DNA of 62,984 bases, counting the filler, from Hausera hauseri (lineage: Eukaryota), in NCBI GenBank assembly GCA_046269625.1. It is 12 parts of 12 records of this genome, joined end to end, with 100 filler letters (N's around TTAATTAATTAA, not from the genome) between each part and the next. Parts side by side here need not be neighbours in the genome. Positions count along the whole stretch, not along the records: positions 8,397 to 13,180 come from JBJURY010436694.1; 11 more parts are not named here. One strand, given 5' to 3'. The notes beneath the pieces were generated by a model. That model saw only the letters and a program-made list of their open reading frames with translations. It was not told the origin of the DNA and did no database searches. A program made the translations under genes and the position numbers. Position 1 is the first letter of the stretch, and every line of letters starts with the position of its first letter. Positions 1 through 57,763 of this stretch are shown here, one piece after another.

Positions 1-3000
1 ATAAAGACACAGGCAATCTAGAATAACAATGTGCACCGGTCACTCCAACGACTACATGCATATATTTCAATCGTCCCGTCACGCAACAGATCTGCGTCTC
101 GTCACAGATCCCAGTCTTGCAGTCGAGGACTGATCTGATTTTACCACAAACGCTTCGGTGAAATAGCAATTAAATGCCATATCGGTTGTAGTTTCTGCAG
201 CAAGAGTGTAGCCACAATTTGAGAACTTTGCGTCATCCATGCAGCCTAGGGTGATAATACAAAAATTTGCTTCCATAGTTGCAACCGCAAAAAATCTTCA
301 TCTAACAGAACATTATCTGCTTTCAACTGATAAGGTCTCCAAAGGGTTCGTTTTCCTTATACACCCAGCCTAAACAGCCGTAAACGTCGTCTTCTTCACC
401 ATCAACACCGGGCAATCTGACGCACAAATTTCTTTCCTTGTTGACACCGGTTTCACAATTTCTGCTGTTCCTCTTTCTTATGCAGCAACATGCAACATTA
501 TCGCTTCTCACAACCTAAATGCTGCCAAGGGTGCACCCATCAAAACTGCTCGGGAGCAAAAGTTATCATTTAAACTCCACTCTTTAAACAATATCTTCTC
601 ATGGCACTTCATTGTCGCTGACGATCAACAACCAATTTTAGGCTCAAACTTTTTTTGAACCTTTGATTTACCTATTGACTGCAAACGCAGAATGATGCTG
701 CCTCCGAAAAATTATGATAGACTAACAACTAATCTAAAATCGCCCATTAATTCAATCGTTAAATCAGCCGCGAGCAGTAAAAATCTGAAATAACATGTTT
801 CATGGCAAAGCCCATAGTAGAAAAAACGAACGAGGAAAGCGAAAAGATGTCAACATCTGTCGTATCTACCGAACTTTCCGCCGTTCCTTCCGTCTTGCAA
901 TCTTTTTTGTCACAAATTTTTTGTCCAAAACCTTTAAGCCTGCTGCTTCAACATTTTACATCATTCACACGAGTTCACTCGCTCCAGTTGGACAAGGCCG
1001 TTGTGAACTCCAGCCAGAGCGCCGCAGCATAGTTGAAGCTGAATTTTTGCAACTTGAACGAGAAGGTACAATCCGGCGGTCTACCCTTCCATGGGCTTCA
1101 TTACTTTACGTGGCACCAAAAAAGATGACATGCTCCGGCCTTGCGGAGATTATCGTCGGCTTAACGTCTTAACCACACCCCTGATAGTTACCCTCTCCCT
1201 ATGATCTGTAACATTTTCCGCAGATTAGATGGCAGCAACATTTTTTACGGTGGACTTGCACAAGCTTACCATCAGATTCCAGTCGCTCCGGAAGATGTTC
1301 AAAAGACCGCCATAGCAACGTCTTTTGGTCTCTTCGAGTATCTCTACAAACCATTTGGACTTTGCAACGATGCCGAAACATTCCAGTGGCATATATACTT
1401 TGTGCTATCAAATTTGCCTTTCACATTCCCACATATCAACGACATACTGATATCCTCCGGAGACGAAGACCAGTACAGGGAACGCATGCGCACTCTTCTC
1501 AAACGCCTTCACGACCATAATCTCCGAATGAATTGGAGTAAATCGCATGTTTTTGCTCAGTCTGTCACATTCTTTGGCTATATCATTTCAACGCAATGGC
1601 ACGCACCACTGCCTGAGTGATTACATTTAATTTGCAACATTGCATATCCATCGACCGTGACAGAACTGGGCAACTTCCTAGGAATGGTTAACTTTTGCCA
1701 AAAATACATTCTTAACTGTTCACACTTCATCACAAATCTCTCTGCCCTAGCTTCTGGCTCAAAATGACGTAAAGTTCAGTGGATGGTTTCTTTAACGACT
1801 GATTTTAATACTCTAATATCCCAACTACAAGATCTTAAAATCCTCGCGTATCCCAAAAGGACGCACCATTGTATCTGTCCACTAACGCATCTACAATAGC
1901 TACAGGTGCAGTTCTGAATAAGCTAAACAATGTAATTCACGAGCCATTACAATTCTTGAGCTATAAGTTCCCTAATACCGAAACGCGTTACCCGACTTTT
2001 TGTAGAGAGTTGCTTTCAATATTTCTAGTCACTAAACATTTTCAACACTTGCTGATTGGGCGTTCTTTCACAATCCAAACCGACCATAAGTCATTAATAT
2101 CTATGATGCAAATGCGTAACCCTTCTCCACGCCAAGAAAGGCAAATTTCGTTTATCTCTCAATTGAATTTTAATATTCTACGTATAACAGGTGCGAAAAA
2201 CGTTGTGACTAATTTTATGTCACGGTCTGTGCCGTTGATCGATTTTATTCCGGTATTTTCTCAAGAAACACTTCGTCAAAATCCACCGTCTCCATCCGAC
2301 ATCTCATATTTCAAAAATACCAAAACCGTAGAAGGTATAATCTTTGATACCACACTGTTGAGAACTTTACGGTTTATATTGTTAGAGACTTTACGCAAAC
2401 AAGTCTTTGATCACATCCATAATCTTCACCATCCCGGTAGTTTATACACTTATCGTCTTCTTCTCACCAAATTAATCTAGCCAGTCATGCGTAGAGAGGT
2501 AAAACACCCGGTGTCTCATGCATGCCATGCAAAAATTCAAAATATCGGAAAACATTAAACCACCGTTATATCATTTCCAAACAATGTCACGTTCCGACAT
2601 TATCCATATTGATCTCGTCGGTCTTCTGCTACCTAACCGAGAATTCACTTACGTGCTCACAATGCTTGACAGATTAACAAGTTTGCCAGAAGTCATACCA
2701 CTTCTTAATATCGAAAGTGATACAGTAGCTAAAGCCTTCATCCTCACAAGGATCAGCCGTTTCGGAATACAAAAACATCTCATCTCTCATCAAGGACGCC
2801 AATTTGAATCCTCGCTCTTTAAAACACTAGCCGCTCGTTTAAGTATCGAACATATTCACACTTAGCTATATCATCTTCAGGACAACAGAGCTTTAGAACG
2901 ATTTCACTGCACTTTTAAAGTTTTGTTAAAGATTTTCGCAGCCAGTAACGAGAAGTGGTTAGACGTCTTTCCATATGTTTTACTTGGTTAGAAAAATTCC

Positions 3001-3350
3001 CAAGGTTCATCAACGAATCACACTCCAGCTCAAGCTTTATTCAGTACATCACTCCACCTGCTTTCAAACCTAGTTATAACGACAACCGACACAACGGAGC
3101 GTGACATAGAGGCAGCAAGAAAAATTTTTGAATCATTCGACGGAGATAAATTCTGCTGTACAACAAACAATCATAAAGAATTCGATTGCACCAAAATTTG
3201 TTTTCTAAAAAATAAAACAAATAGAGGTTTGCAGCCAACTTACACCGGACCACATAGACTTTTAGAATGGCACTCATATACCATCAAAATTCTGAAAAAT
3301 AATGAAATAACCTCTGGCTCATTTAACTAATATAAAACCAGTCTAAATAA
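1..3350 (+). mobile_element. Degenerate Ty3/Gypsy LTR retrotransposon gag-pol (gag Zn knuckle, protease, RT, RNase H, integrase, GPY/F)
   Basis: Gag-type CVIHAA*GDNTKICFHSC (~229-282). Protease FLVDTG (434-451) and FIVADDQQPILG. RT PWASLL..., GDYRRLN, LAQAYHQIP, PFGLCN, HINDILI (YIDD decayed). RNase H TNAS...RELL...TDHKSL. Integrase HNLHHPG, HIDLVG, HQGRQFES, LERFH. GLQPTYTGPH. Many stops and frameshifts. Confidence 0.95.
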
Positions 3351-4103
3351 TACCTGAATCTATAGAACAACCGATCAATGATTCCTCATTCCACAAACGT
3401 TTATTAAACTTAAACTTACCACGGATATCTGGCATAAACACCCAGTATAATCACACTCAAAACTTCCAGACAACCCACACGATTTCTACTCCAACAACCT
3501 CTTTCCCTTCTTCGTCTTTAATTGCACCTAGTATTTCATGTTTTCCACATCCACATATACTGCCATTGTCGTCGACGAAACGTCAATAAACTCATTGTTG
3601 GATCACACGGATATACCAGAACCACTTTTACAGTCCACACCAAGTAGTCATGACCACGCCACCACCAATTCTCGCCTAACAGCCTTAACTTATGACTTGC
3701 GGGAAACTTCTCGTTCACCATACTTCTTACGTTCCATTTTATATAACGCACATGAGTCACAACAACGCATAGCACTACTTCCATCACGTATTTCTTTTCG
3801 ATCATAGTCCTCTATTGCACGACACAACCCAGCATATTCACGCAGGCACTGCATTTGCAAAAATCAATAAAAATACTTACAAAATGTATCATTCACTTGT
3901 ACAGCACACTTTTGTAATTTTTTAAACATGTTTTGCAGTGTGAATTGTTTCTTTTCGGCGGCGGGAGTGGGATGTGTTGTGGCCGCGTGAGATTCCAAAA
4001 TTGTTTTAAAAAAAAGACCATTTGAATAATTAGATCGGATATTAAATTTACAAGATTCACAAGGCCAAAGAAATAAAATTTCACGATTTGACCGAACCCT
4101 TCC

Positions 4104-8396: not shown

Positions 8397-8525
8397 GGTC
8401 AGTTTCCCTTCCCACGATGACGTGCCTTCCTCCCATTCGCCAGTTTCCCTTCCCCGCCATGACGTGTTCTCCTACTATTGGTTTCCTTCCTTCCCTGGGG
8501 GGGTTTGGTGCGAAGTCCTCACATT
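8397..8525. repeat. GC-rich subrepeats next to the PolB 3' end, probable inner part of a Polinton terminal inverted repeat
   Basis: Two copies of CAGTTTCCCTTCCC...ATGACGTG, directly downstream of the PolB stop. Confidence 0.45.
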
Positions 8526-8594
8526 TTACTACTCTGAAACTGTACAAATTTACTACGAAAAAAAACAAATAAAACTAAAATATTTATTTACAAA

Positions 8595-11500
8595 TTATAT
8601 ACAGTAATGGCTATAAGCGGCACTCTGATTTTTCTGAAGCCACTGTCTCTTATCGTCGAACGGGTCCAATGCTTTCTTTTTGCTGTTTATTTTCATGAGC
8701 TGATGATTTTTGTTCCGATACGCTCCTGGTAGACTGTTCTTCGATGACCATATTCATAGGCTTAGAGAAAGTTTTCAAACTGTAAATTTGTTTTCTTCAG
8801 ATTTACGCCTTTGCATTTCAATACGGACTTGGTTTGTGTTTTCAACTAGTAACATTTTGGTTTTAGGCAAATTCCCTCTTTGTACTCGACACTGCCTTTG
8901 CTTTTATCTTTAAATTTATCTATAATAGCCGAGAAACGAGTGGAATAAAGAGGGTCGCTAGTATTATAATTCGACGTGTCCAATTCTTCATTTGAAATCA
9001 TTGTTATTAAGAGTTGTGATCTTAAATCAACTCCACGACCCTCAAGAAAAAAGCTATCCGTGTCACAAGCAGTGATATTTAATTCACAATTAAAATGGTG
9101 TCTATACTTAGCCAGTTTGATGTAATTAAGCTCATACGTCTGTAGCTTGGAAATATCAAGTACGGCCTGACCGATATGTGAGGGCCTATCTAATGTAACT
9201 ATGTCATTATCGAGCAGAACGGCAACCAGATCATCAGCAATAATGATACTTTATTTGAACTGGGCTTTACTGGCATATGTTACAAGCCTCTTTGCATTGA
9301 TACAAAGCCTCAAATTGGACCGTTTTATAAAATTTTCCATTATTTTGATCTTAAAAGTCCTTTTCAAAAGCATTTTTAGCAGCAGCCCTCTTTGCTGTAT
9401 TAAGATTGATGTAGTCCTTAAAGATATAGCATTGATCAAATTTAGCGGCCCGATGTACCTTGTCAATTACAGCGCCTAATTTGATGTACAGTTGCAAACG
9501 CGTATAGTGTATAACATAGTTGGACTTTTGCTCATGTATTAGCAGCAATTTCTTTACTTACAAACCAGGAAGGCAGTTGGTCTAACTTATCATAATTATC
9601 AGCCGGAATGATCAAATCAACTTTGAAGATGAGACCACGTTTTTGTGTAACAGTGTCGACAAAGGGCAATTGTGAAATCAGACTGTTTAATTTATCTTTA
9701 TCATAAATCCCAACCAAATTTCAAAATGGTAAAAGCTGAGATAAAGCCCAGCGGTACAAATTATTCACATCTATATGCAAGATAGTGGTGCTTTCATCGG
9801 TGGTAACCCTATGTTTATTTAGGAACGTCATACCACCACGAATTCCAGATTGGAAAAAAACTATACATTTCAGGATCCTGAATGAGCTCAATACGACATG
9901 GACTCATTTTTAGTTCAGTTGACAAGTTAATCTGGAATAGACACGAAATTAACCGCTTCTAAGTCACCCTCCAACTTAACCTGTTTTCTAAATCGTTCAG
10001 AAATATCACCTAACAAGTATACATCTAGTTTCATGTATACTACCATGTAATCTAAAAGCGAGCTACATCTATATTTTGATCAGGTAAGTTGAGCCTCCTG
10101 ATAATCGCTGTCACTAACTCCATCCCATTTTGGTGGTAATTCAGAAATCGACTGCAAGTCAATAAACGATTTGGCTGCAGTGTATGGAAAAACAGCTTTA
10201 CCTTTAATGATATCAGATGGAAAAGCTGTTTCGGTGAATGGATAACAGTCTAAATTAGAGGCAAGTGTATTTAGTGAAGCAGGTAAAAACTGAAGCGTGT
10301 CAAAAAGCGAATTGAAACTGATTTTTACTTGAACATCGTATCATAGCCTGAATAGTGAAGAATTTTTACGTAGTTTGTGGAACAACACTTAATTCCCAAC
10401 TTCCGAATTTACTTAATGCGTGTTTTAAAATATGATAAATAAAATATCCACGCCAATTATGCAACATAACAGGTAAATTGTACCTAATCTGTTGAGCCAA
10501 GTTACATTTACTACATGCTGGGCCTAAGAATTTACCTGTAACATGGCAGTGATCTCGAACAAATTGAGAACCGTTTTCATGACAGAGGTAACACTATGTG
10601 GCGTTTTTAAACCGAAACCATTCAGCTGATGTTGGTGGGATCATTGGCTTTTTTGCATTTTTGTACCAGGGAAAACCAAGCTTTTCACAATTTACTCTAA
10701 ACAAGCCAGAAACTCAACGATAGAATTTTCACCAACAAACTGTCTATATTCAGTACCCGTTGATGAAACTAACAAAGGACCAGCTGCAGCAGCAAATGAA
10801 TATGTTGAACATTATCATCAGGATACAGAACCGATTCAAAGTCAGCATATATGATGAAAGGAAAGTTTATAGATTTGGCCCAGTCCTTAAATTTAAAAAA
10901 CTTGTTTTCAAGCATTCTGTACAAATTTGTGCATTTGGAAGAAGACACGCACATTGGGAAATGCTTAGCATAAGCAGTGTCAAGCCTAAATCCATGTAAA
11001 CATTTTTCACACCAATGTTTACATTGAATTCTCATATCATTAACCGTATGTTCAACAACCGATTAAGATTAGGAATTGCAACATAATGGAACTTTTCGTC
11101 ATTTTCTAAAATCAACAAGTTCACTACAGTACCATTCGGAATTTTGCTTCTATACAAAATATCAACGAATGGATTTTTCACCATATCCTCATCAAAATCC
11201 ACAACATCCTCATCGTGAAACAAGAAAGCATTAATTGCCAACTGTGGATTCTGCCTTTCAAATTTACCTATGTTGCATATTTTCATAAGCATTTCATCCA
11301 AAGAATATTTCAGCTGGCTTAAATAAGGAACATAATTACTAAGTCTATATATATATGACTTTCAAAGAGAAAATATTTGATCACGGCAATAATCGAGTGT
11401 AGGAAACATAAATTTCCCTCATTCTGTATATCAACAACGGCCATAGCATTTTTTAATGCGTCAAGTGTTGGTAGATAGGATTTTCTAGATAGATAGGGTA

Positions 11501-12210
11501 GTGGACTTATTCTAACTATATGAAAACAGTATTTCAGAATTTTCACTACCTTCCAACCACTACCCATTTCAGAAAAATTATCAACTTGCTCACGCAAAGT
11601 ATCAATTACCGATTGTGGATAAACCTTTTCATAAGGGGCAGTTCGATGTAAAATACATGCCTCCTTAAAGTCACCTTCAGCATTTGCGAACAGAATCTCA
11701 AGTCCGTATTGAATCGTACACAAAGAAAACCGAGAAGTGTACATATCAACATTATTCAAAATTTCCTCAGGTGGTTAAATAGAAATGCGTTGGTCAGGCG
11801 AAACATTAAAGCAAAAGTTCATATATTTATTAGCTATCATCTTTCGAACATTAAGTCGTAGCTTTTTCACAAAATCCATTTTCGATTTCTTTGCTGGTTT
11901 GTCTGAATTTCGGTTCATCCGTCGTTTAACCGGCTGACGAGATGGTTTCATCGGCTGCTTAGATGGTTTAGCTGGTTTACCAGTTATTGGAAGTTGTTGC
12001 TGTGCTACGAACTGTTTTGCCATATTTATCATTTCTCGACGTTCTTGTAGTATGGTTTTCTTTGGTTTGTTAAACATTGTCAGATGGTGTCAATGCTGAT
12101 TACAGAATGCCGGGAATTGTAGACCAGATAGAACCTCGCATGTTGGACAAATGTAAAATTGGGACCCGTCAACTTTCACACTATAATATTTGGGAATCGT
12201 GTTGTTTCAT
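8595..12210 (-). pseudogene. Polinton/adintovirus protein-primed family B DNA polymerase (copy 1)
   Basis: GSGWKV..., IQNEGNLCFLHSI, IIYADFES, DHCHVTGKFLGPACSKCNL, KLDVYLL, SGIRGGMTF, IDVNNLY.WALSQ, CDTDSF, FDDKR. Multiple stops and frameshifts. Confidence 0.93.
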
Positions 12211-12445
12211 TTTTCTTCAGAATAATCTTTATTCGTACCATAGTTGAAGTGACAAATCTAGAATTTACAAGTGCAAAAAAAAGAAAATGCCACTAACCAT
12301 TTTAGCAGATTTAGCAAATTTTTGAAAGTTTGAAATAATTTTAAAATGACTTTGAGGCTCTATTTATACCAATTTTCAACCAATCGGATTTGAGATAAAA
12401 GAGTATATATACTCCAAAACTTTGGGCATAAAACCGAAAATGTTT

Positions 12446-12673
12446 ATGTCTCAAAACAATGTTTGGGTGATTTGTCTCAGTGATATTGAAAAAATCAATG
12501 TCAGACCAGTTAGATATATTCATAGATTTTGTTTAAAATGCATTCGCAAATGGTTTCAAAAAGATGCTACTACATGTCCAATATGTCGCAAATCGAGTCT
12601 TTACTTTTCAATATATAGTGAATATGGGGACTTATTAACCGTAAAACATTTAGAAAGTCTGTTTTGTGATTAA
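12446..12673 (+). CDS. Small RING-finger protein (C3HC4-like; two ligands decayed)
   Basis: (W)VICL...(Y)IHRFCLKCIRKWF...TCPICRK. Confidence 0.8.
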   Translation: MSQNNVWVICLSDIEKINVRPVRYIHRFCLKCIRKWFQKDATTCPICRKSSLYFSIYSEYGDLLTVKHLESLFCD

Positions 12674-12756
12674 ATGTATTTTGAAACTATGATTAAATGT
12701 ATTTTCGTTATTTTTTTCAAAGACAAAATAAAACATAATATTTATTAGTATAACAT

Positions 12757-13180
12757 TTACAATGTTTTGCCTAAAATAGCATGTATTGCGGCGATAACAT
12801 TCATTTCACGAGTGTTTAATTCAATAAAGTTATGTATAAGATTCAAAAGTCGTTTCTTTGCTGGCAGTTGGATTTTGGGCTGTTTGAATGTCGGTAACAT
12901 TTCAAGTATATGAAATTTTATTACTAATGTATCGTCATTAACTGGAAGAAGAGACTCCAATTTTGTTAGTTGACAAATTTTCGGAAATCCTCTTGCAATG
13001 TTACTGTTTTCTGGTTTTATATAACATTTCAATCTCAGATCAGTTTTCATTTTATCCGAGCAGAAAACTTCACCTAATTTGTTCAGTAAAGACATTTGGA
13101 TAGCTGCATAGAAAGGCCATTGTAATGAATGTCATGTTCATCTTTCACTATTGCAAAGAAAACTGATAAATGGGTATTTC
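12757..13180 (-). pseudogene. TRAF-type MATH (TRAF-C) domain gene, 5'-truncated by the contig end
   Basis: NTHLSVFFAIVKDEHD / frameshift / LQWPFYAAIQMSLLN...IKPENSNIARGFPKI...LE...DDTLVIKFHI matches the TRAF-C consensus THLSLFF...D.LL.WPF...P...NIA.G.P.F...DDT.FIK. Confidence 0.85.
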
Positions 13181-13674
13181 NNNNNNNNNNNNNNNNNNNN
13201 NNNNNNNNNNNNNNNNNNNNNNNNTTAATTAATTAANNNNNNNNNNNNNNNNNNNNNNNNNNNNNNNNNNNNNNNNNNNNTCCCCCTACTAGTATAACTT
13301 CGACTGTAGCGTCGAATAGTAGCAGAAACGAAAAGCTTGCTGAAGAATTAACAATTTTCTTGTGGACGAAAATTTGACATTTTCTCGACGTGATTCCAAA
13401 TCTTGACGATTCGTGTTTTGTGTGGTAATTATTATATTTGTCATTTTATTTGTTCTTTTTAAAATACCCGTATAGTTTTCCATCGGCCCTTAAGGCAGAT
13501 TTGAGATATACTATGTTCTAAACTTGTGGTAAATTATATAAGTACTAGATCATTCTTAACTTGTGCACAGGATACGGCACGCATTTCACACGCACGTAAT
13601 ATTTATACATTGGGCACATTCGTTTAACGAGAATGTTAAACCGAATTTGCTTAAAATTAAAGTGTAAATTACGT

Positions 13675-15362
13675 CATATATAAGGGGACAGAGTTAAGGG
13701 CCACCTTAATATATAACATATGTTATTTTTTCGGGAACTGAACAACAAAAATCTGGTATGGACCGAGTCTTGAAACGAAACATTTGAAGCAATGAAAATG
13801 GCTTTGTCGTCTCCACCAATACTAGGGTTCGAAAACTTCAAGAAGGAATTTATTCTGGATACCAAAGCTAGCTTTGATACGATTGGATCAATATTATCAC
13901 AGAAAGACAGCAAGAACAGGAAATATTGATTGCATATGGATAACACGGAATGAATAATCACAAAAAGGTCTATTGCATTACACGGAAGGAGTTGCTACCT
14001 ATTCTGTCAACATTTTAATCACCACTTGTATAGGAGAAGGTTTACACTAATAACGGATCACAAGGCCATTACCTTCACTTTGAAAAAGAAAAAGCCGATA
14101 ACGGCACAATTCCAAACCTGGATAAACTATTTATCAAGTCTAGACATAAGACTGGAATACATGAAAGGAACAGATCACGCAAACGCCGACATGCTATCCC
14201 GGACCAATTGCGGCACATGCAGCCAATGCATGTTAGCTCACGAAGAGGCCAAAACCCACAAGATCAAGACTCGAAGGATAAACGCAGTAGAATTGACAGA
14301 AGCATATCCATATCAAAAAGACAGCAAAGAAATTGAAGAAATAAAAGAAGACATCTCAAAGAAAGAGCATTGGAAATTCATAGTAGAAAATGGCATAGTA
14401 AAGACACGAAAAGGCAAGATATGGATACCAACGGATAAGAGGGGAGAAACGATAAAGCAATGCAACGCCATGCTATCTCATGTCGGAATAGAAAAAGTAA
14501 CAAAATACATAAGCAGTAACTACGATATGACAAACATACAAGACACCGTCAAGGAAGTGATTGGACGCTGTGAGCCATGTCAACGAAACAAGACCGTGAC
14601 AACGGGTACGAAGGAAAAGACCCTGAGACTCACTGCAAACGAGCCATTCGAGAAGATCTACATTGACATTTGCGGACCGTTAAAAGAAACCTGTAGGAAG
14701 AAAAAATACACATTGGCCATCATAGACCAGTTTAGCAGATATATATCACTATCGGCAATAGCAAAACAGAACGAAGTAACAATAAAAAATACCGTGCTGA
14801 AGACTCGGATTATCAAATTTGTCACACCGAAAGAGATACACACAGATTGCGGAAAAGCATTTGAATCTAAGGTATTTAGAGAGATGGCGGCGTCAATGGA
14901 CATCAAGATGTGCTATTCGAGCCCTATCATCACAACACCAATGGCATAATAGAAAGGCAATTCCGGACAATTATAAAATATATAGGTGCGACTCTCCACG
15001 ATCGACGACGAACAGATTGGGAAGAGACACTACCAGAGATAGAATTTACACTGGATGCGACAGTTCAGAAAACAACATGGAATAGCCCAGCAGAAATAAT
15101 ATTTGGAAGAAAAATACGTAGAGAGATGGCATGGACAGGATAAACCAGTGGAATCAACAAAGAGCAACGACCCAGAAAGTATACCAATAAAAAGGGTATT
15201 CCAGGTTGGATACAGACTAATACAGAGGGAATCAGGAGCAAAAGATAAAGACAAGTATGAAGGGTCATACGAAGTAACCAACGATATGTACTGCAACCCG
15301 CGGACGGCAGAATTTTAGAAAAAATGTGGAGAAACTGCAAAAATTCTTAAAGGAGGAGAAGG
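13675..15362 (+). mobile_element. Ty3/Gypsy pol 3' half (RNase H, integrase) ending in a polypurine tract
   Basis: FILDT.AS...IGSIL, TRKELL, FTLITDHKA, HANADMLSR, SHVG...CEPC, IYIDICGP, IHTDCGKAF, PYHHNTNGIIER, YEGSY. PPT AAAGGAGGAGAAGG at 15349-15362. Confidence 0.93.
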
Positions 15363-15541
15363 TGAGGAGGAATTCAAACGGATATTAAGGTTTAAATTTA
15401 ATTCAAAGGTAATTCAGTAAACAGCCAACCGAAAGCCAGGAAAATCAAAAAAGAAGGAAAATAAGGCCATTTCCCCAATGAAGGAGATAAATGTTATATA
15501 AACTTTTATAATAAATATCTTATGCATAAATCAATCTTACA
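15363..15541 (+). repeat. Putative LTR of the Gypsy element
   Basis: Starts TG immediately after the PPT, contains TATATAA and AATAAA, ends ...TCTTACA. The right boundary is inferred. Confidence 0.55.
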
Positions 15542-15628
15542 ACCATTAGTGACGTTGGGGTCGGGATGATAGAGACACGATCTACTCACATAGCGATCAA
15601 TGCTTAAAGAGACTTCTTCGAGAAGAAA

Positions 15629-16126
15629 TTGATGACAAAGGAAGGTGACAACGTGGAAACCTTTATTGGAAAATGCGAGAGATACTTCAACTTCATAAAG
15701 ATGTCGGAGGCGGATCGGGAAACGGCGGTCCTGTGCCTATTGGCGGATGAAGCACAGGAAAAATATTATTTGGTGAGCCAGAAAGTGAAAGGTTATCAAA
15801 ACCGGTTGAGAAGGGCCTTTGCAAAACCCACAACGCTGTGCGGAGATCTGCGGGAAGCACTGGACTACAGAATAAATGGGGCAGAACCGGACGCATACTT
15901 CTACAAAATCGAACAGTTGGTGAAGGGCCTCCTTAGCCACAAAATAACAGCGGAAGCTCTAACAGAGGAATTAATGATCCACTGTTGCGACAATCCAGAA
16001 ATTAGAAAGGAAGTCTACCACAGTGACGAAAAATGCGTCGAACAAATCAAAGAGAAAACACGGAAAGTCCACGAAGTGGCAACAAAGACGAAAGAAATAA
16101 ACACAGTCAGAGAATACACTAGATAG
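15629..16126 (+). CDS. Retrotransposon Gag (capsid-like), 3'-truncated
   Basis: DNVETFIGKCERYF...LCLLADEAQEKY resembles Gypsy gag N-termini, and it lies just downstream of the LTR. Confidence 0.6.
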   Translation: MMTKEGDNVETFIGKCERYFNFIKMSEADRETAVLCLLADEAQEKYYLVSQKVKGYQNRLRRAFAKPTTLCGDLREALDYRINGAEPDAYFYKIEQLVKGLLSHKITAEALTEELMIHCCDNPEIRKEVYHSDEKCVEQIKEKTRKVHEVATKTKEINTVREYTR

Positions 16127-16459
16127 GGTCGCCGGAGTTACCGCGATGTGGCGGTGCACAAATTTGACAAACCAAGACAGAAAAGGAAGAATTTCAAACT
16201 GCACAATACGCAGGCAACGTGTTGTAATTTCTTTTCCCATTATTGGTATGTAAACATTCTTGATCAATATCAAAAAGAACGAAATTCCTTTCTCGTACAA
16301 TCTACACATTTACCATTTCTTATCCGTGTCAAGAACAATCAAAAGTTTGTCCCACCTGTCAGTTAAGCCTGTTCTACAGGCAGGCATCCCTAAGTTAAGG
16401 AGAGTAATAAGAGTAGTGGAAACAAAGGAAGAAGCAGATACTTTTTCAAAGGAAAGCTA

Positions 16460-17070
16460 ATGGAAGAGTTCTCAATAAAATTCAAACTAAAAGCCTATAC
16501 AAATCGTATCGAAATAGCATTTTCTCCAGAAATGAAAGAATAGGAAATTAAAATAAAATGTACCGGTGTCCACACAAAAATTGAAATCAAATATATCAAA
16601 AGTAAACGAAATTTTTGCGAAGGTCTAATACCGGATACAAATTACCTAGTGTCAATAAAGACACAGGATAAGTCAAAACTTGTGACAATAAAACGTTACA
16701 TATGACGGACCGATATCGGAACATAAGGGACAACGACGAAGACGAGAAACTGAGAGTAACTACAGCCACGCCAAGTACAATAGATATGTGCTTCACACGA
16801 TATTGTGGATATTCGTTATAATGACTAGTACTGGTATAGTCGTGATTTTAATGGTAACATGGGAGGAAAATGAAATACAGAAACAGAAGGACTTACGAAT
16901 CGCATTACTCGGTAATCCGAAGTAATAAATTATATACGACTTCCAAATCGTACTCAGTTGAAGAAATAAGGAAGGAAAATAAGGAAACGCAAGACATTTC
17001 AAACACAATACCGACAATAGTAGATAGGAATGAAAACACACTTTTTGTTTTGTACCTACATTGTTTGTAG
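16460..17070 (+). pseudogene. Decayed type-I membrane protein: FN3-like domain, TM helix, Tyr-containing tail
   Basis: KAYTNRIEIAFSP...CEGLIPDTNYLVSIKT (FN3-like GLxPxTxYxV). Hydrophobic TILWIFVIMTSTGIVVILMVTW in another frame, then RRTYESHYSVI. Confidence 0.4.
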
Positions 17071-17856
17071 GATTAATTGGAAGTAATTCTAATGATTAAC
17101 TTAAATACAACTTTACGAACTACATACCATTTGTAATAATTGGATTAATCACAATCATCCATATTGTTATCATCTTAATCTTAACCACTCAAAGAAAGCC
17201 TAACTCAAGGGAAAATATTGGCCAACTAATCAATTCAGCCTAAATGGCTAAAACCAGATTAGAAGAATTAATAAGCCACTTTATATCTGATAAAATGTCA
17301 AGAAATCAATTCAATCTAGATCCGAAACTCGGAAGAAGAATTCAAGACCGACTTGGTACCGCTCCCGAATTGGGAAGCAAAGATAAAGGAACCTGCCATA
17401 AAGGAATACGAAAGTTTAGTACTGCTCAGAAATCCATGACTTACTTATTTTATGATAAAGTAATTGCTCATGTGGTTGAATCTACCGACCGCATAAGCAA
17501 AGTATAACAGATACCTAATGCCTTGAAATACGGAGAACTTCGCAATCGCGAAATACTTCCCTTCAAGATGCTTAATTCAGAGAAAACAATGGGATAACTA
17601 TTCACGTCGCACTAAGATCATGATGATATTCCGAAAACTCAGAGAAGAAAGATACATAGGAAACAATCAGTCAACAGGAATCTTGTAAGATAAATGACCC
17701 CATTGATCAAACCCGGACACGATTCATTGCAAAGGAAATGTTAACAATGAATGATTGAGATCCTTAGAAAGGAGAAAGTATATTCGACACCAACTCCATT
17801 ATAATACAAGGTAAAACCTACCGAAGAATTATTGAATGAACCAAACATCTTATTAA

Positions 17857-19776
17857 CCCTTTCAGGGACATTAATGTCATATGGAAAAAAAATAAAATTT
17901 GTCTAATTAACTCACTGCAGTCACGCGAGACGTGAACTGCATGTAGGACATGATTGCACGCAACCATACACAAAAAATTGGTTTTTGTATTCTATGGCGT
18001 GATGGTAAGGCGGGGCCGGAACAACGGCCCGCGAAAAGTGCTGTCAAAGTAGGAAGCTATTATGTCTAAGTTTGATAACGGTCATCGGTTTTTTCATGTT
18101 TCAGAAAATTAAATCCAAGTTAATATTGATTAGTACGCAAAAATTAGATTCGCATAATTTAGACACAGAAAATTAATATTTGTTGCCATATGGCAATAAT
18201 GTCATAATATTCAATCAATCATTATTTGATATGTATTATTAGCACTTGTTTTTATTTCTTTGACGATAGTGTATCAATACTTATTTCTTACATTGAAAAT
18301 GTCATTGTATTTTGAAGATTTGGGCTTCTACGTTTTTGGCTATCACAAAGATCAACGGAGATGTATCGGAAAGTGAATCTATCAAAGGAGACTATTTCAG
18401 ATACACCTGAATGGCGCTGCGAAAGGCATAAAGTGGTGTAGACACTTGCAGCCAAAGTTTCCTGATGAAGTGCCTACAGACAACTTTACGGAACCACAAA
18501 ATACGGATTTATTGCCATCTCATGAATATTCCTCATTATTTTTGAAACCAGAAATGATTAAAATTTTGACTGAGCAAACAAACTTTTATTCTGTTCAGGA
18601 AACTGGTGACTCAATTGCTTGCACAGTTGCGCAAATGGAAAAATTCATTGGCATTCTTTTCCTATCTGGTGTGACTCAGTTTCCATCTCACAGATTATAG
18701 TGGAACACGCATATGCGTTTCAATCAGATCGCTGATATAATGGGATTAAAACTATGTAAGAAAATAAAGAAATATTTTCATATTAATGACAACATCAATT
18801 AGAAAAGATCTCGTGAAGACGGATATGATCCGTTGTTTAAGGTTCGTCCATTACTCGATCATGTGCGCAATAACTGTAGAACAATCGAACCAGAAGCACC
18901 TCAGTGTGTTGATGAACAAATAATAAAGTTCCAGGGAAGAAGTCGTATGAAAAAATATTTGCCTAACAAACCTACTATATGGGGATATAGGGTAATTGCA
19001 CGTTGCGGCAAATCTTGGTTAATCTATGATATTCATATCCAATCTGATAAGTTTGAAAGTCCGCAACACTCCCTGGACTACTGTGCAGATGTTGTGTGCA
19101 AGCTTTGTGAAACTCTTCCAACAACGCAAAATATCTTTTTGTACTGACAGTTTTTACATTACAATATCCTTGTTGAAAAAGTTAAGCGAACGGCAGATTT
19201 TTGTTACAGGTACCATCAATTATAATCAATTGTCCAAATGCCCATTCAAGTCCAATAAGGAATTACGTCGTGGTGAATCAGACATGCTAATTGATACGGA
19301 AAGTGGGGTTTGCGTTGTGAAATGGTTTGGCAGCAGGTCTCTTATTTTAGCATAAACCAGCTTTGGTCAACTACCAACCGATGAATGTGATTGATTCTGC
19401 AGGAAAACAAAGCAAATAATTAAAGTTACACGGCCAGCAGTTGTCCAATCTTATAATAAAAATATGGGAGGTATGAATTTGTTTGACATGATGTGCCTGT
19501 AGTCAACGGTTGGTTACTGATGCGAAGAAACGCAAAGCAACTAAACCTACAGGAAAAGTCAATTGTTCCACGGTTGGACTTTACGTTTCATATTAACAGT
19601 ACATTGAGAACATCTGATATAACTGCTCAACGAAATTGTGGTCGACCTAGTAGTGACGCATGGAATCCTCTTGTTGACGCCCTTTTCCTATCAAAAAAGC
19701 CGAGTCACTATTCAGCCAAATTTTGATTCAAGAAAAAACAAAACCGAACAGTGGCCAGTATACAGCACGAAAAGTG
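17857..19776 (+). mobile_element. piggyBac (PGBD-like) DNA transposon, decayed, right end missing
   Basis: TTAA target (17853-17856) followed by a CCCT terminus. KVRPLLD, VDEQIIKFQGR..KKYLPNKPTIWG, TDSFY, YNKNMGG..LFD. Confidence 0.92.
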
Positions 19777-19876: not shown

Positions 19877-20134
19877 AATATATCGGTTATTGTGTCGGAT
19901 TGTCCGCAAACGACTTGAAATAAGGTTTGTTTCTTGTCGGGTAAAGTAAATACCATTGTTCTGACGTATTGTCATTGGTGAAAATGTAAATATGAATTCC
20001 GTCAAAGCCACTTCCTAGGCTTCTTGGCGTAAATTGACCGGTTGGTTCAAGTGCACGGTAAACTGTTTAGCGGTATTGTTATCATCATTTTGCGATGATG
20101 ATCTGTTACTATCAAGTACCAAATAAGTGCTCAT
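19877..20134 (-). pseudogene. Polinton minor capsid (penton) paralogue A, N-terminus
   Basis: YLVLDSN...NNTAKQFTVHLNQPVNL...(W)EVALTEF. Its start overlaps the integrase stop (TGATG). Confidence 0.8.
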
Positions 20135-21167
20135 CACTCAATCTGCGATGCAAAAATCCAACTCGGTGTAGTGTATCCGTGTCACTTGTCGAGATATTAT
20201 TTATTTGAACCTTGACCACGTGAACGTAGAATTTCCTGAATACGATACACATCAAGCTTTTCCGGTAGTACTTGCAGTTCCTGTTCGTAAAATTTGCCAC
20301 GTATTTCGTCACCATTTTTATCTTCTAAAACGTACATAACCGGACTTTGCTTTGTGCTGATTGCTGAAATTCGGAAAACCTCATCGCTCCAGTTCTGATT
20401 AAAATTCTTAATGAATGGTGTCGTATTCAGCTTTGAAATACATACATAATCACCGATTTTATACTTTGGACGACGTTTAATTGCCTGTCGTCCTCGCTGG
20501 GTTCGGTTGTTTTGATAAAGCCAGATGTCCACATCATCAGTTACGTCAACCGGCCATAATCCATTGATGCCACGATGTGTCGAATGATTGTATGCATGAA
20601 TAATATCCGGCAGTACATCTACTCAACGTTTGTTGCCTTGCATCGTAAAGAATTTGTTTAGGCGACCACGCAATGTTCCATTAAATCGTTCATCCAGTGC
20701 AGCCTTGTATTGGAAAAACACCGAGTAGTAATTTACACAGAACCGTTTCAAGACCACTGCAGCGTGGATGTTGTAGAATTCCTTACCCAAATACGTTTGT
20801 AAATGTTTTGGTTGTTGTTATTGTATCAGTGTTGTTGTGCAAAACGACTAAACACATCAACGCATGTCAGCACATACCGATACTTATCGTTGATGCTGGC
20901 GTACGCTATCATTTCCATCAGATGCATTTTCCATACGTTATTTACATCGGCAGCACGGTATGCACGAGTTGGAAACCTCTTTCTTATCGGTTTGTTTAAA
21001 ATGTATGCTAACTGTTTCCCTAGGCAACTTTGGGTCTGTTGCCGAGTCTGTTTGACAGTTTTTGCCAGTTTGTCAAAGCCAGTATACCCGACGGGATGAC
21101 GCGGGTCGAACCATACGTTGCCTATCGGTGTTGTTTTCTTCGTCGATGGTGCCGGTTTTGCTTGAAT
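20134..21167 (-). pseudogene. Polinton rve integrase with C-terminal chromodomain
   Basis: WFDPRHPVGY, VWKMHL.EM, YVLTCVDVFSRFA, LGKEFYN, YNHSTHRGI, NWSDEVFRI, GKFYEQELQ, YRIQEIL. Confidence 0.92.
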
Positions 21168-21382
21168 TGCAACAATTAGAACTAAACGTAAATGAAAGAT
21201 TAGGTAAACTGGGGCAAAGTGATGAAAACCATGCACCCATTGCGACGAATAATTATATACTTACCGTCATTGTTTATACTATGCTGTAGAGCCAATGTGT
21301 TTACTCAGTTATGACGTGACAATCGGTACAATTGCATTAAGTACGTATTGTGGACGTATTGATGCTGATGAGACGTAGTTGT

Positions 21383-21601
21383 TTATAACCGTTGCCACTG
21401 TGACGGTAATTTGCGTCTAGTTGTTGTTGTTGTTCGAAGCACAGAAGTGATTAATCGCTTGGCTGTCGCGGTTCGTTTTGATACACGTTTTTCGCCGGAT
21501 ATCGGCATGGTAGGTTTGAGTTTAACAATAGTTTTTCGGAAATTCTTTATTTTATCACAATCATGTCGTCGATTTTTGAATTTGTTTATAGACACATACA
21601 C
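21383..21601 (-). CDS. Small basic Polinton protein of unknown function
   Basis: K/R-rich 72-aa ORF directly downstream of the ATPase. A homologous sequence is at 53645-53785. Confidence 0.45.
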   Translation of the reverse strand: MYVSINKFKNRRHDCDKIKNFRKTIVKLKPTMPISGEKRVSKRTATAKRLITSVLRTTTTTRRKLPSQWQRL

Positions 21602-22211
21602 CCACTCTTCTGATTGAAAATGTATGTTCGTACACGCATGTCATCGGGTCTCTGTTGTGTAAAGGCAATAAACAGATATCCATGCGGTTTTTTCGTAGCA
21701 TCATGATATGCATCTATTAAGTAGGCTCGGTTGTGAGGACATGCTTGTCGTGCAACATAATCAATGATAGTCTGATCACGGGGATTTTTGAACAACACCA
21801 AACAGTGTACGTTTAGATTTCTTATTCGATGCTGTCCGCCCTGATAGAAAATGTTTTGCGTAATGAAAATGACCGTTACGCCACGGTGTCGTGCAATCTT
21901 CGTGAACAGGTTGTTTAAATCCGATTGTTTCGCGGCTTCATGAAATAAATCATTGATGACAATAGCAACACCGTTGTGTAATCTCTCTGACCAGTTCTCA
22001 TGAAACCCGTTATCGATTTCAGTTTACAAAATTCCCGATGTGTCACAACGGACTCACCATTATCACCAACACCCTGATGCCAATATATGTGATTGTACCA
22101 CGGTGAATGGAACATATCACTGTAGTTCTGTAATAGTTTCAACAGAAAGTATTTTTTGCCACTTCCACTGGGGCATATAATCTGGAAAATGGCATCATTC
22201 TGCAGCTTCAT
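21586..22211 (-). pseudogene. Polinton A32/FtsK-like packaging ATPase
   Basis: Walker A (C)PSGSGK, Walker B IVI(N)DL, RHRGVTVIFITQNIF, VLFKNPRD, DATKKPHGYLFI. Confidence 0.92.
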
Positions 22212-22318
22212 CTAAATAACAATAATAATAAAACCTTTCCTTACCACATGATTTGTTTATAATCGTGTTACACACACACATATATATATATAGCTATAGT
22301 ATAAACACTGCTTCCATA

Positions 22319-22790
22319 ATGTTACCTAATATCAATTATCGCGGACATATTACCGAGTGTGACATTAACACACTACCTTTTAATCAATGGAAGCCGAGGC
22401 AGTATGTCGTCAAGTATCCACCGGATTTTACATGTATTGTATTTCAATCGGAAAAGTGTCGTATTATGGGTTGTCGCAAACCAATCACAGAAGACAGTAA
22501 CAGTAATCTACTACCATTCGGAATTGTCATTGACCAAATCTAATCAATAACGGTAACGACTCAGTTAGACTACCACCAAACAATCAATTTGTACAAATTA
22601 GCAATGACCGCTGCTACTGAATGTACGTATGAACCCGAACTGTTTTCTGCACTTAGACTGACAATGTTTCGCCCACCTTGTGTCAATGTGTGTAGCAGTG
22701 GAAAAATTTTTATACTCGGTATTCGGACAGTGGACTATTAGCCGATTATTAATCAAATTAAAAACCACATATATCTTTTAGTAAATCAAA
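22319..22790 (+). pseudogene. TATA-binding protein (TBP)-like gene inside the Polinton
   Basis: Repeat 1 TCIVFQSEKCRIMGCR. Reading through TAA 22541 gives repeat 2 I*SITVT...INLYKLA...YEPELFSAL...CVNVCSSGKIFILGIR, which compares with TBP YEPELFPGL...LLIFVSGKVVLTGAK. Confidence 0.85.
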
Positions 22791-22852
22791 ATAATGTACT
22801 TTGCACTACAAACTGTAAATACCATTCCCATGCTCATTCAGACATTACTGCC

Positions 22853-23506
22853 ATGGAAGACGACGATGATAAAACGATTCTGCCCAATGATGATGATAGT
22901 GGTTGTGCGAATGATGAAAGTTCAGATTGGTCGTTGTTGTTTGGCGACAAAAAGGACAATTTTAATGTCAAACAATTAGAAAAACCGGGCGATCGTCGGC
23001 AGATCGATTTTCTGGAAACGAAACAGGAACTTGCTCAGAAATCATCAGCAGCGGCGAACCCGACGTTAAAAAGGCGAAATGCAATGATTGGAATATGCAA
23101 ACGAAAATCAAAACCGTCGGCACACCAAACACAGATATTTTTACCGAAACGAATTTTTCGCAAGTATGAAATGCATTTTCTGCAAACGCCCATACTAATT
23201 TTATTAAACGATCCCGTGTCTCTATGCGCACCCAAGTACAGCTATCGTGTAAAACGGCTTTCGGTTGAAAATTTGTATAAACTTTCTAATGCTCTACATC
23301 AATCAAACGTGGATTTAAAGTTGAACGAAAGGACTGTGCAACAGCAATCTGTCGATTTACCGGCGCAAAAAACAAAACTGTTTGATTTTATCGGTCGCGA
23401 AATGTCTTATGTACCCGATGATAATGGTAGTTTAAAGTGTCGACTGAATATTGAGTTGCAAGGATACAAGGAAAAGCCGGTATCAAAAGCCCGATTTGGC
23501 GTGTAA
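22853..23506 (+). CDS. Hypothetical 217-aa Polinton protein with acidic N-terminus
   Basis: Open ORF between the TBP-like gene and dUTPase, in the same frame as the TBP-like gene. No recognisable motif. Confidence 0.55.
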   Translation: MEDDDDKTILPNDDDSGCANDESSDWSLLFGDKKDNFNVKQLEKPGDRRQIDFLETKQELAQKSSAAANPTLKRRNAMIGICKRKSKPSAHQTQIFLPKRIFRKYEMHFLQTPILILLNDPVSLCAPKYSYRVKRLSVENLYKLSNALHQSNVDLKLNERTVQQQSVDLPAQKTKLFDFIGREMSYVPDDNGSLKCRLNIELQGYKEKPVSKARFGV

Positions 23507-23614
23507 CTGAACACATTNNNNNNNNNNTACTATTCTTCTTCTTCTTCTTCTTTCACCAACCCAATTAACGAGCATAAATATACGTGTTTTTTTAAAAAAA
23601 TAGGCATAAGAATA

Positions 23615-24085
23615 ATGATAATGAATGATGTAAAGATTATCTTAACAGACGAAAACGCCTTTGTACCGAGACGTGTTACAGCAAACAGTGCAGGCTACGA
23701 TGTGTTTTCCAATGTCAATACGACAATTTCCGTCAGCATAATCAAATGCATAACGACTAAAATGCGATTGGCGATTCCATCGGGTAACTACGGCCAACTT
23801 TTATCGAAAAGCGTACTGGCAAAGCTCGGATTGACAGTTGTAGACGGTGTTATTGATTCAGACTTTTGTGGTGAAATTAAGGTGTTGCTGAAAAACTAAT
23901 CCAGCGAACCGTATGCTTTTTCGAAAGCCAGTGCAAATGCACAAAACGTTTTTCTTCTCTGTGAAGAAATGGAATTCAGTGTAATGTCACCGGAACAATG
24001 GGGATTGTTTTGCATCAATGAATCGATGCGAAATGAACGCAAAGAATTTGACTTCTGTGATATGGAAAAAACCGTCTATGTTTAA
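23615..24085 (+). pseudogene. dut: Trimeric dUTPase
   Basis: SAGYDV, GQLLSKS.LA, GVIDSDFCGEIKVLL. After a premature TAA at 23897 come decayed motifs 4 and 5 (NAQ; R...EF). Confidence 0.92.
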
Positions 24086-24159
24086 TTATTACGATAATAA
24101 TAATAGTTAGTTGTTTTGCTTGTGTCATAAACAAAAAAAGATTTTGTACATGATAAGTA

Positions 24160-24619
24160 ATGGCGACAGGATTTATAGATATTGAAACGTCCCAAGATGA
24201 TAATGTCGGGTACATAATAAATGAATTATGAATTATGGATGTCGGTAACATTTTCAAACCGCTTCTGTACATACTGAAGCCCGGTATTGCGTGGAAAGAC
24301 CTGACGGAAAAAGCGAAAATTGCAAACGGATTTTGTTTNNNNNNNNNNCAATTGAATATTTTGTGCGCCGTGCATTATACAAGAGATTTGTGATCGTTTT
24401 GACATTGAAAATATAATATTTTACATTAGAGATCAAATTGACGGTCAAAGGCTTACACAACTCCATTCACAGTTTCCCGAGTTGCGAATGGCGACGTATT
24501 CAACATAAAATAGCTCACTGGCGATGGTACCTGACAATATTCAATGTCCATATCGTGATCATGGACCACACTGTGCTTACAAAAAATGCCTACGGCTTTG
24601 TATTGACTATATTTCATAA
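24160..24619 (+). pseudogene. DnaQ/DEDD-like exonuclease-fold protein with C-terminal Cys/His cluster
   Basis: MATGFIDIE...YIINELWI, VKG, CPYRDHGPHCAYKKC. Interrupted by a 10-N gap. Confidence 0.55.
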
Positions 24620-24729
24620 ATAAATGCATTTCTCTGTTTCTTTTTTCTTTCCGTAAATAAGGTTTGCCATGTTGGTCAATTGAATAATTCGAAAACTATA
24701 AATATTGGTAGGAAATATTATTAATCATC

Positions 24730-24999
24730 ATGAAAATAGTTAATCAACTGAAGCAGTTGCAAAATTTTGATGAATTATCAATTTCAGACTTGGAACGATG
24801 GTGGCAAGTAATTGATAGTGGGCTGATTGCGAGAGCAGCAGCTGATTTTGGGTTTAAAGAATATCTAGTGTCAATAGCATTGATGACAGCAAAAGATTGC
24901 AGCTCTATAGAAAATCTAATTATTGTATTAAATCAAATGTACATTCACCGATTGTACAACACAAATTACTTTAACACTGTTGAAAAGGTACGCGGTGAA
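24730..24999 (+). CDS. Hypothetical protein, truncated by the contig end
   Basis: ATG-started 90-codon open frame preceded by TATAAA (24697). Confidence 0.45.
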
Positions 25000-25099: not shown

Positions 25100-26758
25100 T
25101 GGTGCATTAATGAATTCAGCGTGATAAATTTAACCTCTTGACCTCTTGTCAACAGCTTTATCACTTATTAACCGATAACTCCAACAGATAACCTTCACAA
25201 AATTCATTCGCTCAATACAAATCAATTATGGATAAGAAAAAGTTAATGTTGACATTGAACCAAAAGTGGAAATTATTAAGTTGATCGAGCAAAAAGAAAC
25301 ACAGACGGCAATAGCTAAGAAATACGATGTAGAGCAAGCTGTAATATGTAGAATAAGTAGTAACAATGGTACAAGTCTAACTGACTGACAAAATAATAAA
25401 AATCCGAACATGAAACGAAAACGCGTTGGGCATGCGGAAGATGTAGAAAACGCGTTGTTGAGTTGGTTCAGTCACGCATCGAGTAGATAGGTGCCATTAA
25501 GCGGACCAATCCTCAAATCAAAAGCTGAACAGATTGCGAAGCAGCTTGGATTTAATTCATTCACAGTATCAACAGGGTGACTAAAACGATGGAAACAACG
25601 CAATAACATTAATTGTAGGAAAAAGCATGGTGAGAAACAGGATGTGGATGACTTGGGTGCTGAGCGATGGATCACCGATGTGCTTACAGATCTGTTGAAA
25701 GACGTTAATCCATCCAAAGTGTTCAAAGCTAATGAGACAGGTCTGTACAGGAAAGCACTTCCAGACAGAACATTAGCGTTCAAGAACTCAACGGTGTCTG
25801 GTGCAAAGATCCGCAAGGAAAGATTAACTATTCTTATTGCTGTGAACATGGATGGATCAGAAAAGTTAGAGGTGTTAGTGATCGGAAAGAGTCTGAATCC
25901 ACAATGTTTCAAAAACCTTAAGAACTTACCAGATATGTATGAAGCCAACCGCAATGGTTGGATGGTGCCTGACCTGTGGAACAAGTGGTTACTGAAGGTT
26001 GATCGTTCGATGGAACTCCTAAATAGAAACATTCTGTTATTCTGTGACAACTGCACATCTCATAAAACCGATGTAAAGCTGACGAACATTAAAACATTCG
26101 ATGAGACTATCATTTACAAACCGGATGATATGAACATGGATGAGTTCGTCATTTATGTTTCAATGGACAATGCTGTTGCTACAGAAAGTGACGAATTTAA
26201 TGCATGTGACTCGATCAGTCTAACAGATACGACGGATGTTACGCAGCCTGGAGGTGTCAATATCCTGGAACCAGCAACCGTTTGCCAACCTCAACCCTGT
26301 CAATGACCGTGTAGCCATTGATGTCGTTCGAAAATTCCTGGAAGCAAATGGCTGCAAAATTATGATGGTGTGTATCAGATGCAGAATAAAGTTATCGAAC
26401 TTGGACATAAAACTGCAAAGCAAAGTTCTATTCTGGATTGTTTCAAAAAATTTTAAAAAACTTGTTCCTACATTTCACAGTGGACTACAACTGTTTTATT
26501 AAAATTTAGTTTCATGAATGTGTGTTCGAAAAATAAAACAAAAAATTACATAGTGTGTTGCAGTCTCATTATTTCATTTATAGGTCTCCTTATGATATTA
26601 TTTTTTACGTAAGTTAAATGATCAAATGTTGGAATAACTTGTAAATATTTTTGACACGGAATTTCATTTAATTTCAATAAGTCCGCCATAGTGGATAATC
26701 TGCTTTAATGGATTTTTTCTCAGTCCAGATGCTATCCACTGAAGCGGAGCCGACTTTA
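25100..26758 (+). mobile_element. Tigger/pogo (CENP-B-like) DNA transposon, internally deleted
   Basis: HTH KVEIIK...IAKKYDV, VENALLSWF...PLSGPILKSKA...STG*LKRWK.RNNI, NETGLY..ALPDRTL, KERLT, LLFCDNCTSH. Tigger-like right TIR at ~26683-26756. Confidence 0.92.
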
Positions 26759-44390: not shown

Positions 44391-44546
44391 ACGTCATGTA
44401 TGATGACGACGATGACAACCACAAGTTCATGATTGAGTACCAACAACTCACAAGGAGAATGATTGATGAAAAGTCACACATATTATATTTGTTCTCATGA
44501 TTTGTTCAAAAAAAACAACAGCAATAAAATAATACGCATATATATT

Positions 44547-44920: not shown

Positions 44921-45000
44921 ATTAAGTATAATAGTAATAGTAGTAATAAATGGCTTTATAATACGGCGAAGAAGAAAAGGTGAGACACAGCGGATTTTAT

Positions 45001-46219: not shown

Positions 46220-46246
46220 TTGTATGTCTGTCTGTCTGCCAATCAA

Positions 46247-46606: not shown

Positions 46607-46610
46607 GTTG

Positions 46611-57759: not shown

Positions 57760-57763
57760 ACTG

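Follow-up and report, generated by a model that had tools for sequence, protein, structure and literature searches.

TRAF proteins that lack a RING act as dominant negatives, and PMC5863512 points in this direction. Three published reports already place a TRAF gene on viruses or transposons, which limits the surprise of a further case. Starrett et al. 2021 labelled a TRAF3-like ORF in Fig. 5 on a MELD virus with an adintovirus-like PolB, and their section 3.2 describes oncogene-like accessory genes upstream of PolB, with Bcl2 and IAP homologues in adintoviruses (PMC8502044). The preprint 10.1101/697771 likewise names TRAF. One supplement text contains no whole-word TRAF, RING or MATH; supplementary figures may bear on novelty. 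In planarians, the giant LTR retrotransposons Burro/GYPSM1 carry MATH_TRAF_C with RING, BIR and BCL2 (PMC6431247, section 7), and the same review regards Burro as possibly a provirus from its env-like region. The megalocytivirus TRAF ISKNV ORF111L, a protein of 296 aa, binds TRADD and induces caspase-8 apoptosis (PMC3352826); this one tested viral TRAF in the literature covered promotes apoptosis instead of blocking signalling, which speaks against a decoy reading.

The TRAF-C gene described here resembles each of these systems in part. In the MELD virus, too, a midsize dsDNA element having the same class of polymerase carries a TRAF3-like gene, but its TRAF is set apart by its description, which stands in a section on non-animal datasets and refers to predicted structural similarity (PMC8502044); the contig studied here belongs to a Polinton of animal type, the match to TRAF2/3/5 is at sequence level, and a tail helix is present. 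Burro is also a mobile element carrying MATH_TRAF_C, which in D. tigrina is a separate accessory ORF, but it is a retroelement and not a DNA-polymerase element, a comparison made with our family by description only (PMC6431247). ISKNV ORF111L is a viral gene of host TRAF origin in which RING, coiled coil and MATH follow in the usual order (PMC3352826), whereas our family has no RING and a helix after MATH. With animal TRAF1/2/3/5 the family shares the TRAF-C fold and, to judge from the groove sites, apparently the polar pocket and part of the hydrophobic pocket; unlike them it has no RING, zinc fingers or TRAF-N, its serine triad is reduced and it has an extra C-terminal helix. Arabidopsis RTM3 has an N-terminal MATH and a C-terminal coiled coil and is self-interacting (PMC3377653), but it serves a plant host against viruses and its coiled coil is far longer; the likeness, drawn by description, is one of architecture only. 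TRAFs on viruses and transposons are known; the MATH-then-helix order in a Polinton was not found described. The literature covered, in which subscription journals are thinly represented, yielded no description of an animal Polinton whose TRAF-C stands alone and has a tail helix. The portions of PMC11161782 and PMC11915834 that we consulted mention neither MATH nor TRAF; those of 10.64898/2026.10.13.758929 do not mention MATH, and no mention of TRAF was found for it.

The window, that is the whole stretch of 62,984 nucleotides that was analysed, is made of 12 short contigs with 11 identical N44-TTAATTAATTAA-N44 linkers between them, and the assembly is repeat-rich eukaryotic, probably animal. 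The TRAF-C remnant occupies the right-hand end of the 4784-bp contig 8397-13180, which alone provides its genomic context; the DNA past 13180 is unrelated. Besides the TRAF-C gene, this contig contains a RING ORF and a decayed polymerase of Polinton type that is preceded by a conserved ORF (Table 1), and the DNA neighbouring TRAF-C is gene-dense and without introns.

Table 1 Features of the TRAF-C contig and of the adjoining linker
Feature	Position	Strand	Basis or remark
GC-rich tract, 144 bp, 53% GC, directly after PolB 3' end	8397..8540	.	composition, repeats
Polinton-type family B DNA polymerase, decayed, endonuclease VII insertion	8595..11774	-	ordered motifs, Endonuclease_7 1.3e-5, collinearity
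Conserved ORF upstream of PolB, Cys/His motif then basic region	11775..12206	-	stop at 12090-12092; tblastx
Small stand-alone RING ORF, 75 aa from Met, convergent with TRAF-C	12446..12673	+	zf-RING_2 9.4e-7, over cut-off
Spacer separating RING and TRAF-C stop codons, 83 bp, 16% GC	12674..12756	.	AATAAA on both strands
TRAF-C (MATH) gene remnant with C-terminal helical tail	12757..13180	-	motifs, Pfam, alignment with P0002; 5' end cut by contig end
Assembly linker, N44-TTAATTAATTAA-N44	13181..13280	.	joins unrelated contigs, no biology

The four motifs quoted in the earlier note were all found on the minus strand in two frames, THLSVFF at 13178-13131 and LQWPF, NIARGFP and DDTLVIK at 13131-12757, with one frameshift near 13131. 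The claim of a TRAF-C domain held in the profile search proposed with it: the piece 12757-13131 alone matched TRAF-mep_MATH (7.2e-8) and MATH_2 (5.2e-8) in Pfam, and because both families exceed their curated cut-offs the match is not due to chance. The profile score was 33.3 bits for the window piece against a cut-off of 27.4, and 88.5 bits for the relative P0001. Aligned to the intact relative P0002, the remnant covered residues 44-59 and 60-182 without an intron-sized gap; the first ~43 MATH residues and all upstream DNA are absent because the contig end at 13180 cuts the gene. The gene had been called intronless, and the alignment agrees with this, but it is not diagnostic, since unrelated MATH stretches at loci L001 and L004 align equally free of introns. 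A distance of ~550 nt to the PolB locus fits the conserved ORF upstream of PolB (about 12200) but not the polymerase itself, whose frame on that side starts at 11774, ~1 kb off.

The window TRAF-C copy is a pseudogene, like its PolB, and most likely dead. The first Ser at the serine-triad position (S453) is lost, and Arg replaces the Ser/Thr of the relatives in the motif preceding the last groove strand. The 17 differences tallied inside the TRAF-C ORF (40 of 135 rows) fell on 9 first, 3 second and 5 third codon positions, a pattern consistent with neutral decay in a sample too small to carry much weight.

The PolB region contains many stops and frameshifts, and its motifs are scattered over all three frames. 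Read from 11774 to 8595, they begin with Exo I and pass through motifs A and C to later polymerase motifs, all in order. The region was collinear with contig 33059-37345 from 12155 to 8622 (tblastx) and matched contig 58050-62984 (tblastn), which bears the only DNA_pol_B_2 match of the window (1.9e-5). No polymerase family in Pfam or PHROGs was matched by 12 pieces of the region. A phage tblastn search with a PolB piece gave no match, and in a viral contig scan with two PolB pieces 0/20 and 0/1 pattern matches were relatives. We assign a Polinton-type PolB because of the ordered motifs, the endonuclease VII insertion and the homology chain to the DNA_pol_B_2 contig; judged from its sequence, the polymerase of the element would be a protein-primed family B enzyme of the Polinton/Maverick (adintovirus) type. 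Inserted homing endonucleases occur in polinton pPolBs (PMC11161782). The ORF upstream of PolB matched no Pfam or PHROG entry, but its Cys motif part likewise precedes PolB in the second Polinton contig (33174-33272, tblastx collinearity), where the ORF gave a blastp value of 3e-5, pairwise only.

In the GC-rich tract there is a direct repeat of 14 nt, and TGACGT occurs twice and CCCGCC once; the tract is possibly part of a terminal inverted repeat. If so, the terminal repeat would lie beyond the PolB 3' end, and TRAF-C would therefore be on the inner side of PolB. In agreement with the earlier note, no terminus is visible between PolB and TRAF-C, where neither a long inverted repeat nor a terminus motif was found; contig 8397-13180 as a whole contains no long inverted repeat. 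Ends of the AGTAGT/AGAGAG type, which we take to be Polinton terminus motifs, were represented by one ACTACT only, at 8528, which is chance level.

The contig was detected in two public runs from two organisms (X1 and X2; shares 0.46 and 0.08), with 41,851 (X1) and 3,163 (X2) contigs aligned along 8397-13180 and 445 and 15, respectively, on 12280-13180. At a single TRAF position as many as 27 X1 contigs depart from the window sequence (27 at 13141, 10 at 12877), hence the gene is repetitive and not single-copy. These are not alleles of one locus, because 352 of the 445 X1 contigs are less than 95% alike and thus too divergent; so are all 15 of X2. The window sequence at the frameshift site is not shared by four contigs of X1 and two of X2, indicating that the frameshift is not common to all copies. 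Summed contig depths, which cannot rank genes and were given no weight, vary widely along the contig, and X2 cover is missing in 8 of 30 bins of 12280-13180, 7 of them inside TRAF-C.

Among the matches listed, divergent pieces tile 12010-12327, 12302-12545, 12481-12766 (X2) and 12737-12875, and together they extend almost gap-free from the upstream ORF, across RING, as far as the stop codon of TRAF-C. One X2 contig spans RING through the whole RING-TRAF-C spacer. The TRAF stop is unbridged under a 31-letter rule among the 16 of 463 pieces listed; there, an X2 piece reaches 10 letters into the ORF and an X1 piece begins 20 letters before the stop. An X1 joint at 12655-12841 was discounted as a link, with 23 letters on its short side, and two short matches to long X2 contigs, one of 36 bp at 12312-12347 and one of 34 bp at 12700-12733, were taken as chance.

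These copies bear on two other accounts of the contig. That it is a chimeric assembly of repeats is barely credible: it is short, it comes from a fragmented repeat-rich assembly and no single piece among the matches listed spans the whole PolB-to-TRAF-C stretch, but independent contigs of two organisms keep the same order over the junctions. It is distinctly unlikely that RING and TRAF-C, or TRAF-C alone, form part of another mobile unit in or beside the Polinton, for example an accessory ORF of a Burro-like LTR element, as is the separate MATH_TRAF_C ORF in the Burro-like element of Dugesia tigrina (PMC6431247). Such a unit finds room in that strict bridging is lacking at the TRAF stop and that the next gene lies past the contig end. 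Against it, the divergent pieces pass from the Polinton upstream ORF into RING and across the spacer, no start or end point is shared by many molecules and no breakpoint is common to the matches listed, and the 4.8-kb contig, as far as it reaches, contains no LTRs, gag-pol, retroelement coding matches or long repeats.

Protein searches returned a small family. The window TRAF-C piece matched 2 representatives in a set of 1.84 billion, P0001 and P0006, and when it was used as query 1 of 2 candidates was a relative (P0001, 68%). With P0001 as query 4 of 20 candidates were relatives, P0001 included; P0005 is a cluster-mate of P0002. The six intact relatives (P0001-P0006, 170-213 aa) are gene-caller predictions, in which an upstream exon may be missed. 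In all six a Met stands at the first MATH strand; in P0004 it is preceded by 28 extra residues. The tail after MATH measures 47-50 residues in five relatives and in the window copy and 31 residues in P0001, whereas all six full-length TRAFs inspected stop within a few residues of MATH. The earlier note had suggested looking in other copies for a RING or zinc fingers of their own: both are absent from 6/6 relatives, as is an upstream TRAF-N coiled coil. A protein that consists of Met, MATH and tail is not a canonical TRAF1/2/3/5 adaptor.

No close fused longer form was present among 21 of 8000 scored candidates, whose best local identities were 28-53%. In the viral contig scan the TRAF piece gave no relative (0/5 pattern matches, 0/98 by alignment). 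Of 193 matches in the metagenome scan 4 loci were retained, each of them a distantly related MATH gene (33-53%), with which no PolB, upstream-ORF or RING match was found. ESM Atlas searched with P0002 returned only generic MATH clusters, the best at 0.91.

The architecture of the relatives also bears on whether the remnant stems from a host TRAF gene adjoining the Polinton insertion, either as its last exon or as a retrocopy, which we consider highly unlikely. Intron-free MATH coding does occur at ordinary eukaryotic loci (L001, L004), the 5' end of the window gene is unseen and some invertebrates have large TRAF families (PMC7586133). The relatives, however, have their Met at strand 1 and an additional tail absent from the full-length TRAFs inspected, and a single host exon fits poorly with the divergence of the 352/445 X1 contigs and with gene-dense, intron-free neighbouring DNA. 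The TRAF-C gene is probably cargo of the Polinton.

The AlphaFold model of P0002 shows a beta-sandwich followed by one 41-residue helix (142-182), with pLDDT 80-91 over 151-183; the MATH part is of low confidence (mean pLDDT 66.5, pTM 0.51). With this moderate model confidence, P0002 is predicted to adopt an antiparallel beta-sandwich fold. Compared with viral TRAFs in Foldseek, the model gave a probability of 1.00 and a TM of 0.56, and iridovirus TRAFs were the top named BFVD fold matches (1.7e-6 and 2.3e-5, 30-33% identity). In the tail, 67-79% of heptad a/d positions are hydrophobic, as against 29-39% elsewhere, values for the best of 7 registers with no shuffle control; a homotrimer prediction of P0002 run without an alignment scored 0.02 and was given no weight in either direction. 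P0001 matched 28 PDB sequences, all TRAFs, the best being TRAF3 (1e-22), followed by TRAF5/2/1 at about 1e-20 and TRAF4/6 at about 1e-8.

A phylogenetic comparison, which the earlier note had recommended for host TRAFs, placed the family in a single clade beside full-length host-like TRAFs. The tree had 49 rows, namely 48 of 56 MATH stretches (8 under 95 residues were dropped) and the window piece; the six relatives and the window piece formed one branch (100/99). Its sister was the pair of full-length zinc-finger TRAFs P0011/P0012 (86/88, unstarred), which weakly suggests that the clade is sister to full-length TRAF2/3/5-like proteins. Groove sites were taken from TRAF2 positions (PMC6125299) mapped through lamprey P0015. 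R/K393, Y395, F410 and S453 are kept in 6/6 relatives, F447 is M or I and S454 is altered in 6/6, and C469 is retained in 1/6; five of the six have S-x-C at the serine triad, as in P0011/P0012.

Collectively, these results partly uphold the proposal that the element carries a captured host TRAF: the gene is multi-copy, it belongs to a compact gene pair presumably inward of PolB and its relatives form their own clade next to full-length host-like TRAFs, although this support is indirect. An animal host is the likely source of the captured TRAF-C domain, and its likely use was to jam signalling in the host. We hypothesize that a single capture took the MATH-coding part of a host TRAF2/3/5-type gene and that RING, zinc fingers and TRAF-N were lost. 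The model-predicted amphipathic helix of ~40 residues gained at the C-terminus would then oligomerise the domain, replacing the lost coiled coil. The partly kept groove may bind PxQx-type receptor or adaptor tails in competition with host TRAFs, which could damp signalling through NF-kB, JNK or death pathways in cells with the replicating element. PxQx binding is uncertain because the groove is kept only in part (F447, S454, C469). The RING-less, zinc-finger-less design of the six relatives, as read from their sequences, appears compatible with a decoy. If the gene is cargo, the balance tilts toward a decoy role; the full reading, in which a stand-alone TRAF-C is cargo of a Polinton family and its intact relatives are decoys occupying TRAF-binding tails without passing a signal, is an even call.

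Such cargo had also been taken to favour an element with a genuine infectious stage over one that only transposes. This is not supported, as the Burro LTR retrotransposons carry MATH_TRAF_C too; given the precedents in the MELD virus, planarian Burro and iridoviruses, TRAF cargo does not show an infectious stage.

The RING ORF, overlooked in the first reading, sits between PolB and TRAF-C and is presumably degenerate, with Trp at the first zinc ligand of the RING consensus. The spacer that follows it carries AATAAA at 12727 on the plus strand and, as TTTATT, at 12741; it might weakly be read as a shared terminator for RING and TRAF-C, and AT-rich DNA yields such hexamers easily.

This ORF raises the possibility that the cargo is an active effector, in which TRAF-C picks substrates and the small RING ubiquitinates them as a split TRAF, or which pushes survival or death signalling. 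ISKNV ORF111L combines RING, coiled coil and MATH in one chain and triggers caspase-8 apoptosis (PMC3352826), and Burro elements join RING, MATH_TRAF_C, BIR and BCL2 (PMC6431247). At our locus, the two genes converge with their stop codons 83 bp from each other, and the X2 contig covers RING and spacer. Neighbourhood alone is a weak sign of an interaction between RING and TRAF-C, the RING ORF has just 75 aa and lone RING genes are widespread in large DNA viruses; an active effector, although the main alternative, is unlikely. In one form of it, an animal Polinton lineage would have remade a captured host TRAF-C back to front, placing an oligomerising helix after the domain, and would have retained a convergent small RING gene, the pair working as a split ubiquitin ligase that removes receptors or adaptors of the host; that such a split TRAF-like ligase persisted in elements of at least two organisms is a long shot.

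Polinton accessory genes indicate the host pathways that the elements must handle. If the decoy reading were true, TNF-receptor-like or Toll-like signalling would restrict Polintons in an invertebrate, where these pathways are poorly mapped. A bare TRAF-C domain could be used as bait for TRAF-binding partners, and the MATH-then-helix order offers a natural test of oligomerising TRAF-C from its other end.

Other contigs of the window contain further element remnants. Contigs 33059-37345 and 58050-62984 hold two more decayed Polinton-type PolB, the former having the upstream Cys/His ORF and the endonuclease VII insertion in common with the TRAF-C contig. The decayed Polinton-like contig 19877-24999 carries a TBP-like ORF (22544-22738, Pfam 6.8e-9) and a dUTPase (23507-23899, 4.4e-13) as further cargo types, with pieces that by eye we take to be integrase-like and packaging-ATPase-like. 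Likewise, ORFs of 42652-48341 and 53645-57949 are by eye presumably Polinton major capsid, cysteine protease, minor capsid and integrase. These capsid-, protease- and integrase-like ORFs had no Pfam match at 0.01 and are unlinked to the TRAF-C contig; in the viral contig scan a capsid-like ORF gave 0/3 relatives. Contigs 1-4103, 13281-19776 and 25100-32958 hold Gypsy-type RT/RNase H/integrase remnants, two transposases, one IS4 and piggyBac-like and the other DDE_1, and part of a protein kinase. In 48442-53544, A-rich plus-strand ORFs (48584-49192 and 51454-52989) had no Pfam match and possibly represent an unusual retroelement or viral remnant.

Two observations concern other TRAF-like proteins. 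P0013, P0014, P0028-P0036 and P0018, from NCBI, JGI and ENA contigs and annotated 'hypothetical protein', form a clade separate from the window family, some being 144-aa MATH-only forms that share one cluster with 392-aa forms; we would guess that they are possibly symbiont-borne TRAFs. In the Oculina patagonica gene model P0017 an integrase (PF00665) is combined with a TRAF zinc-finger/MATH end that matches the MATH of P0016 identically; this is probably a gene-model fusion across an insertion.
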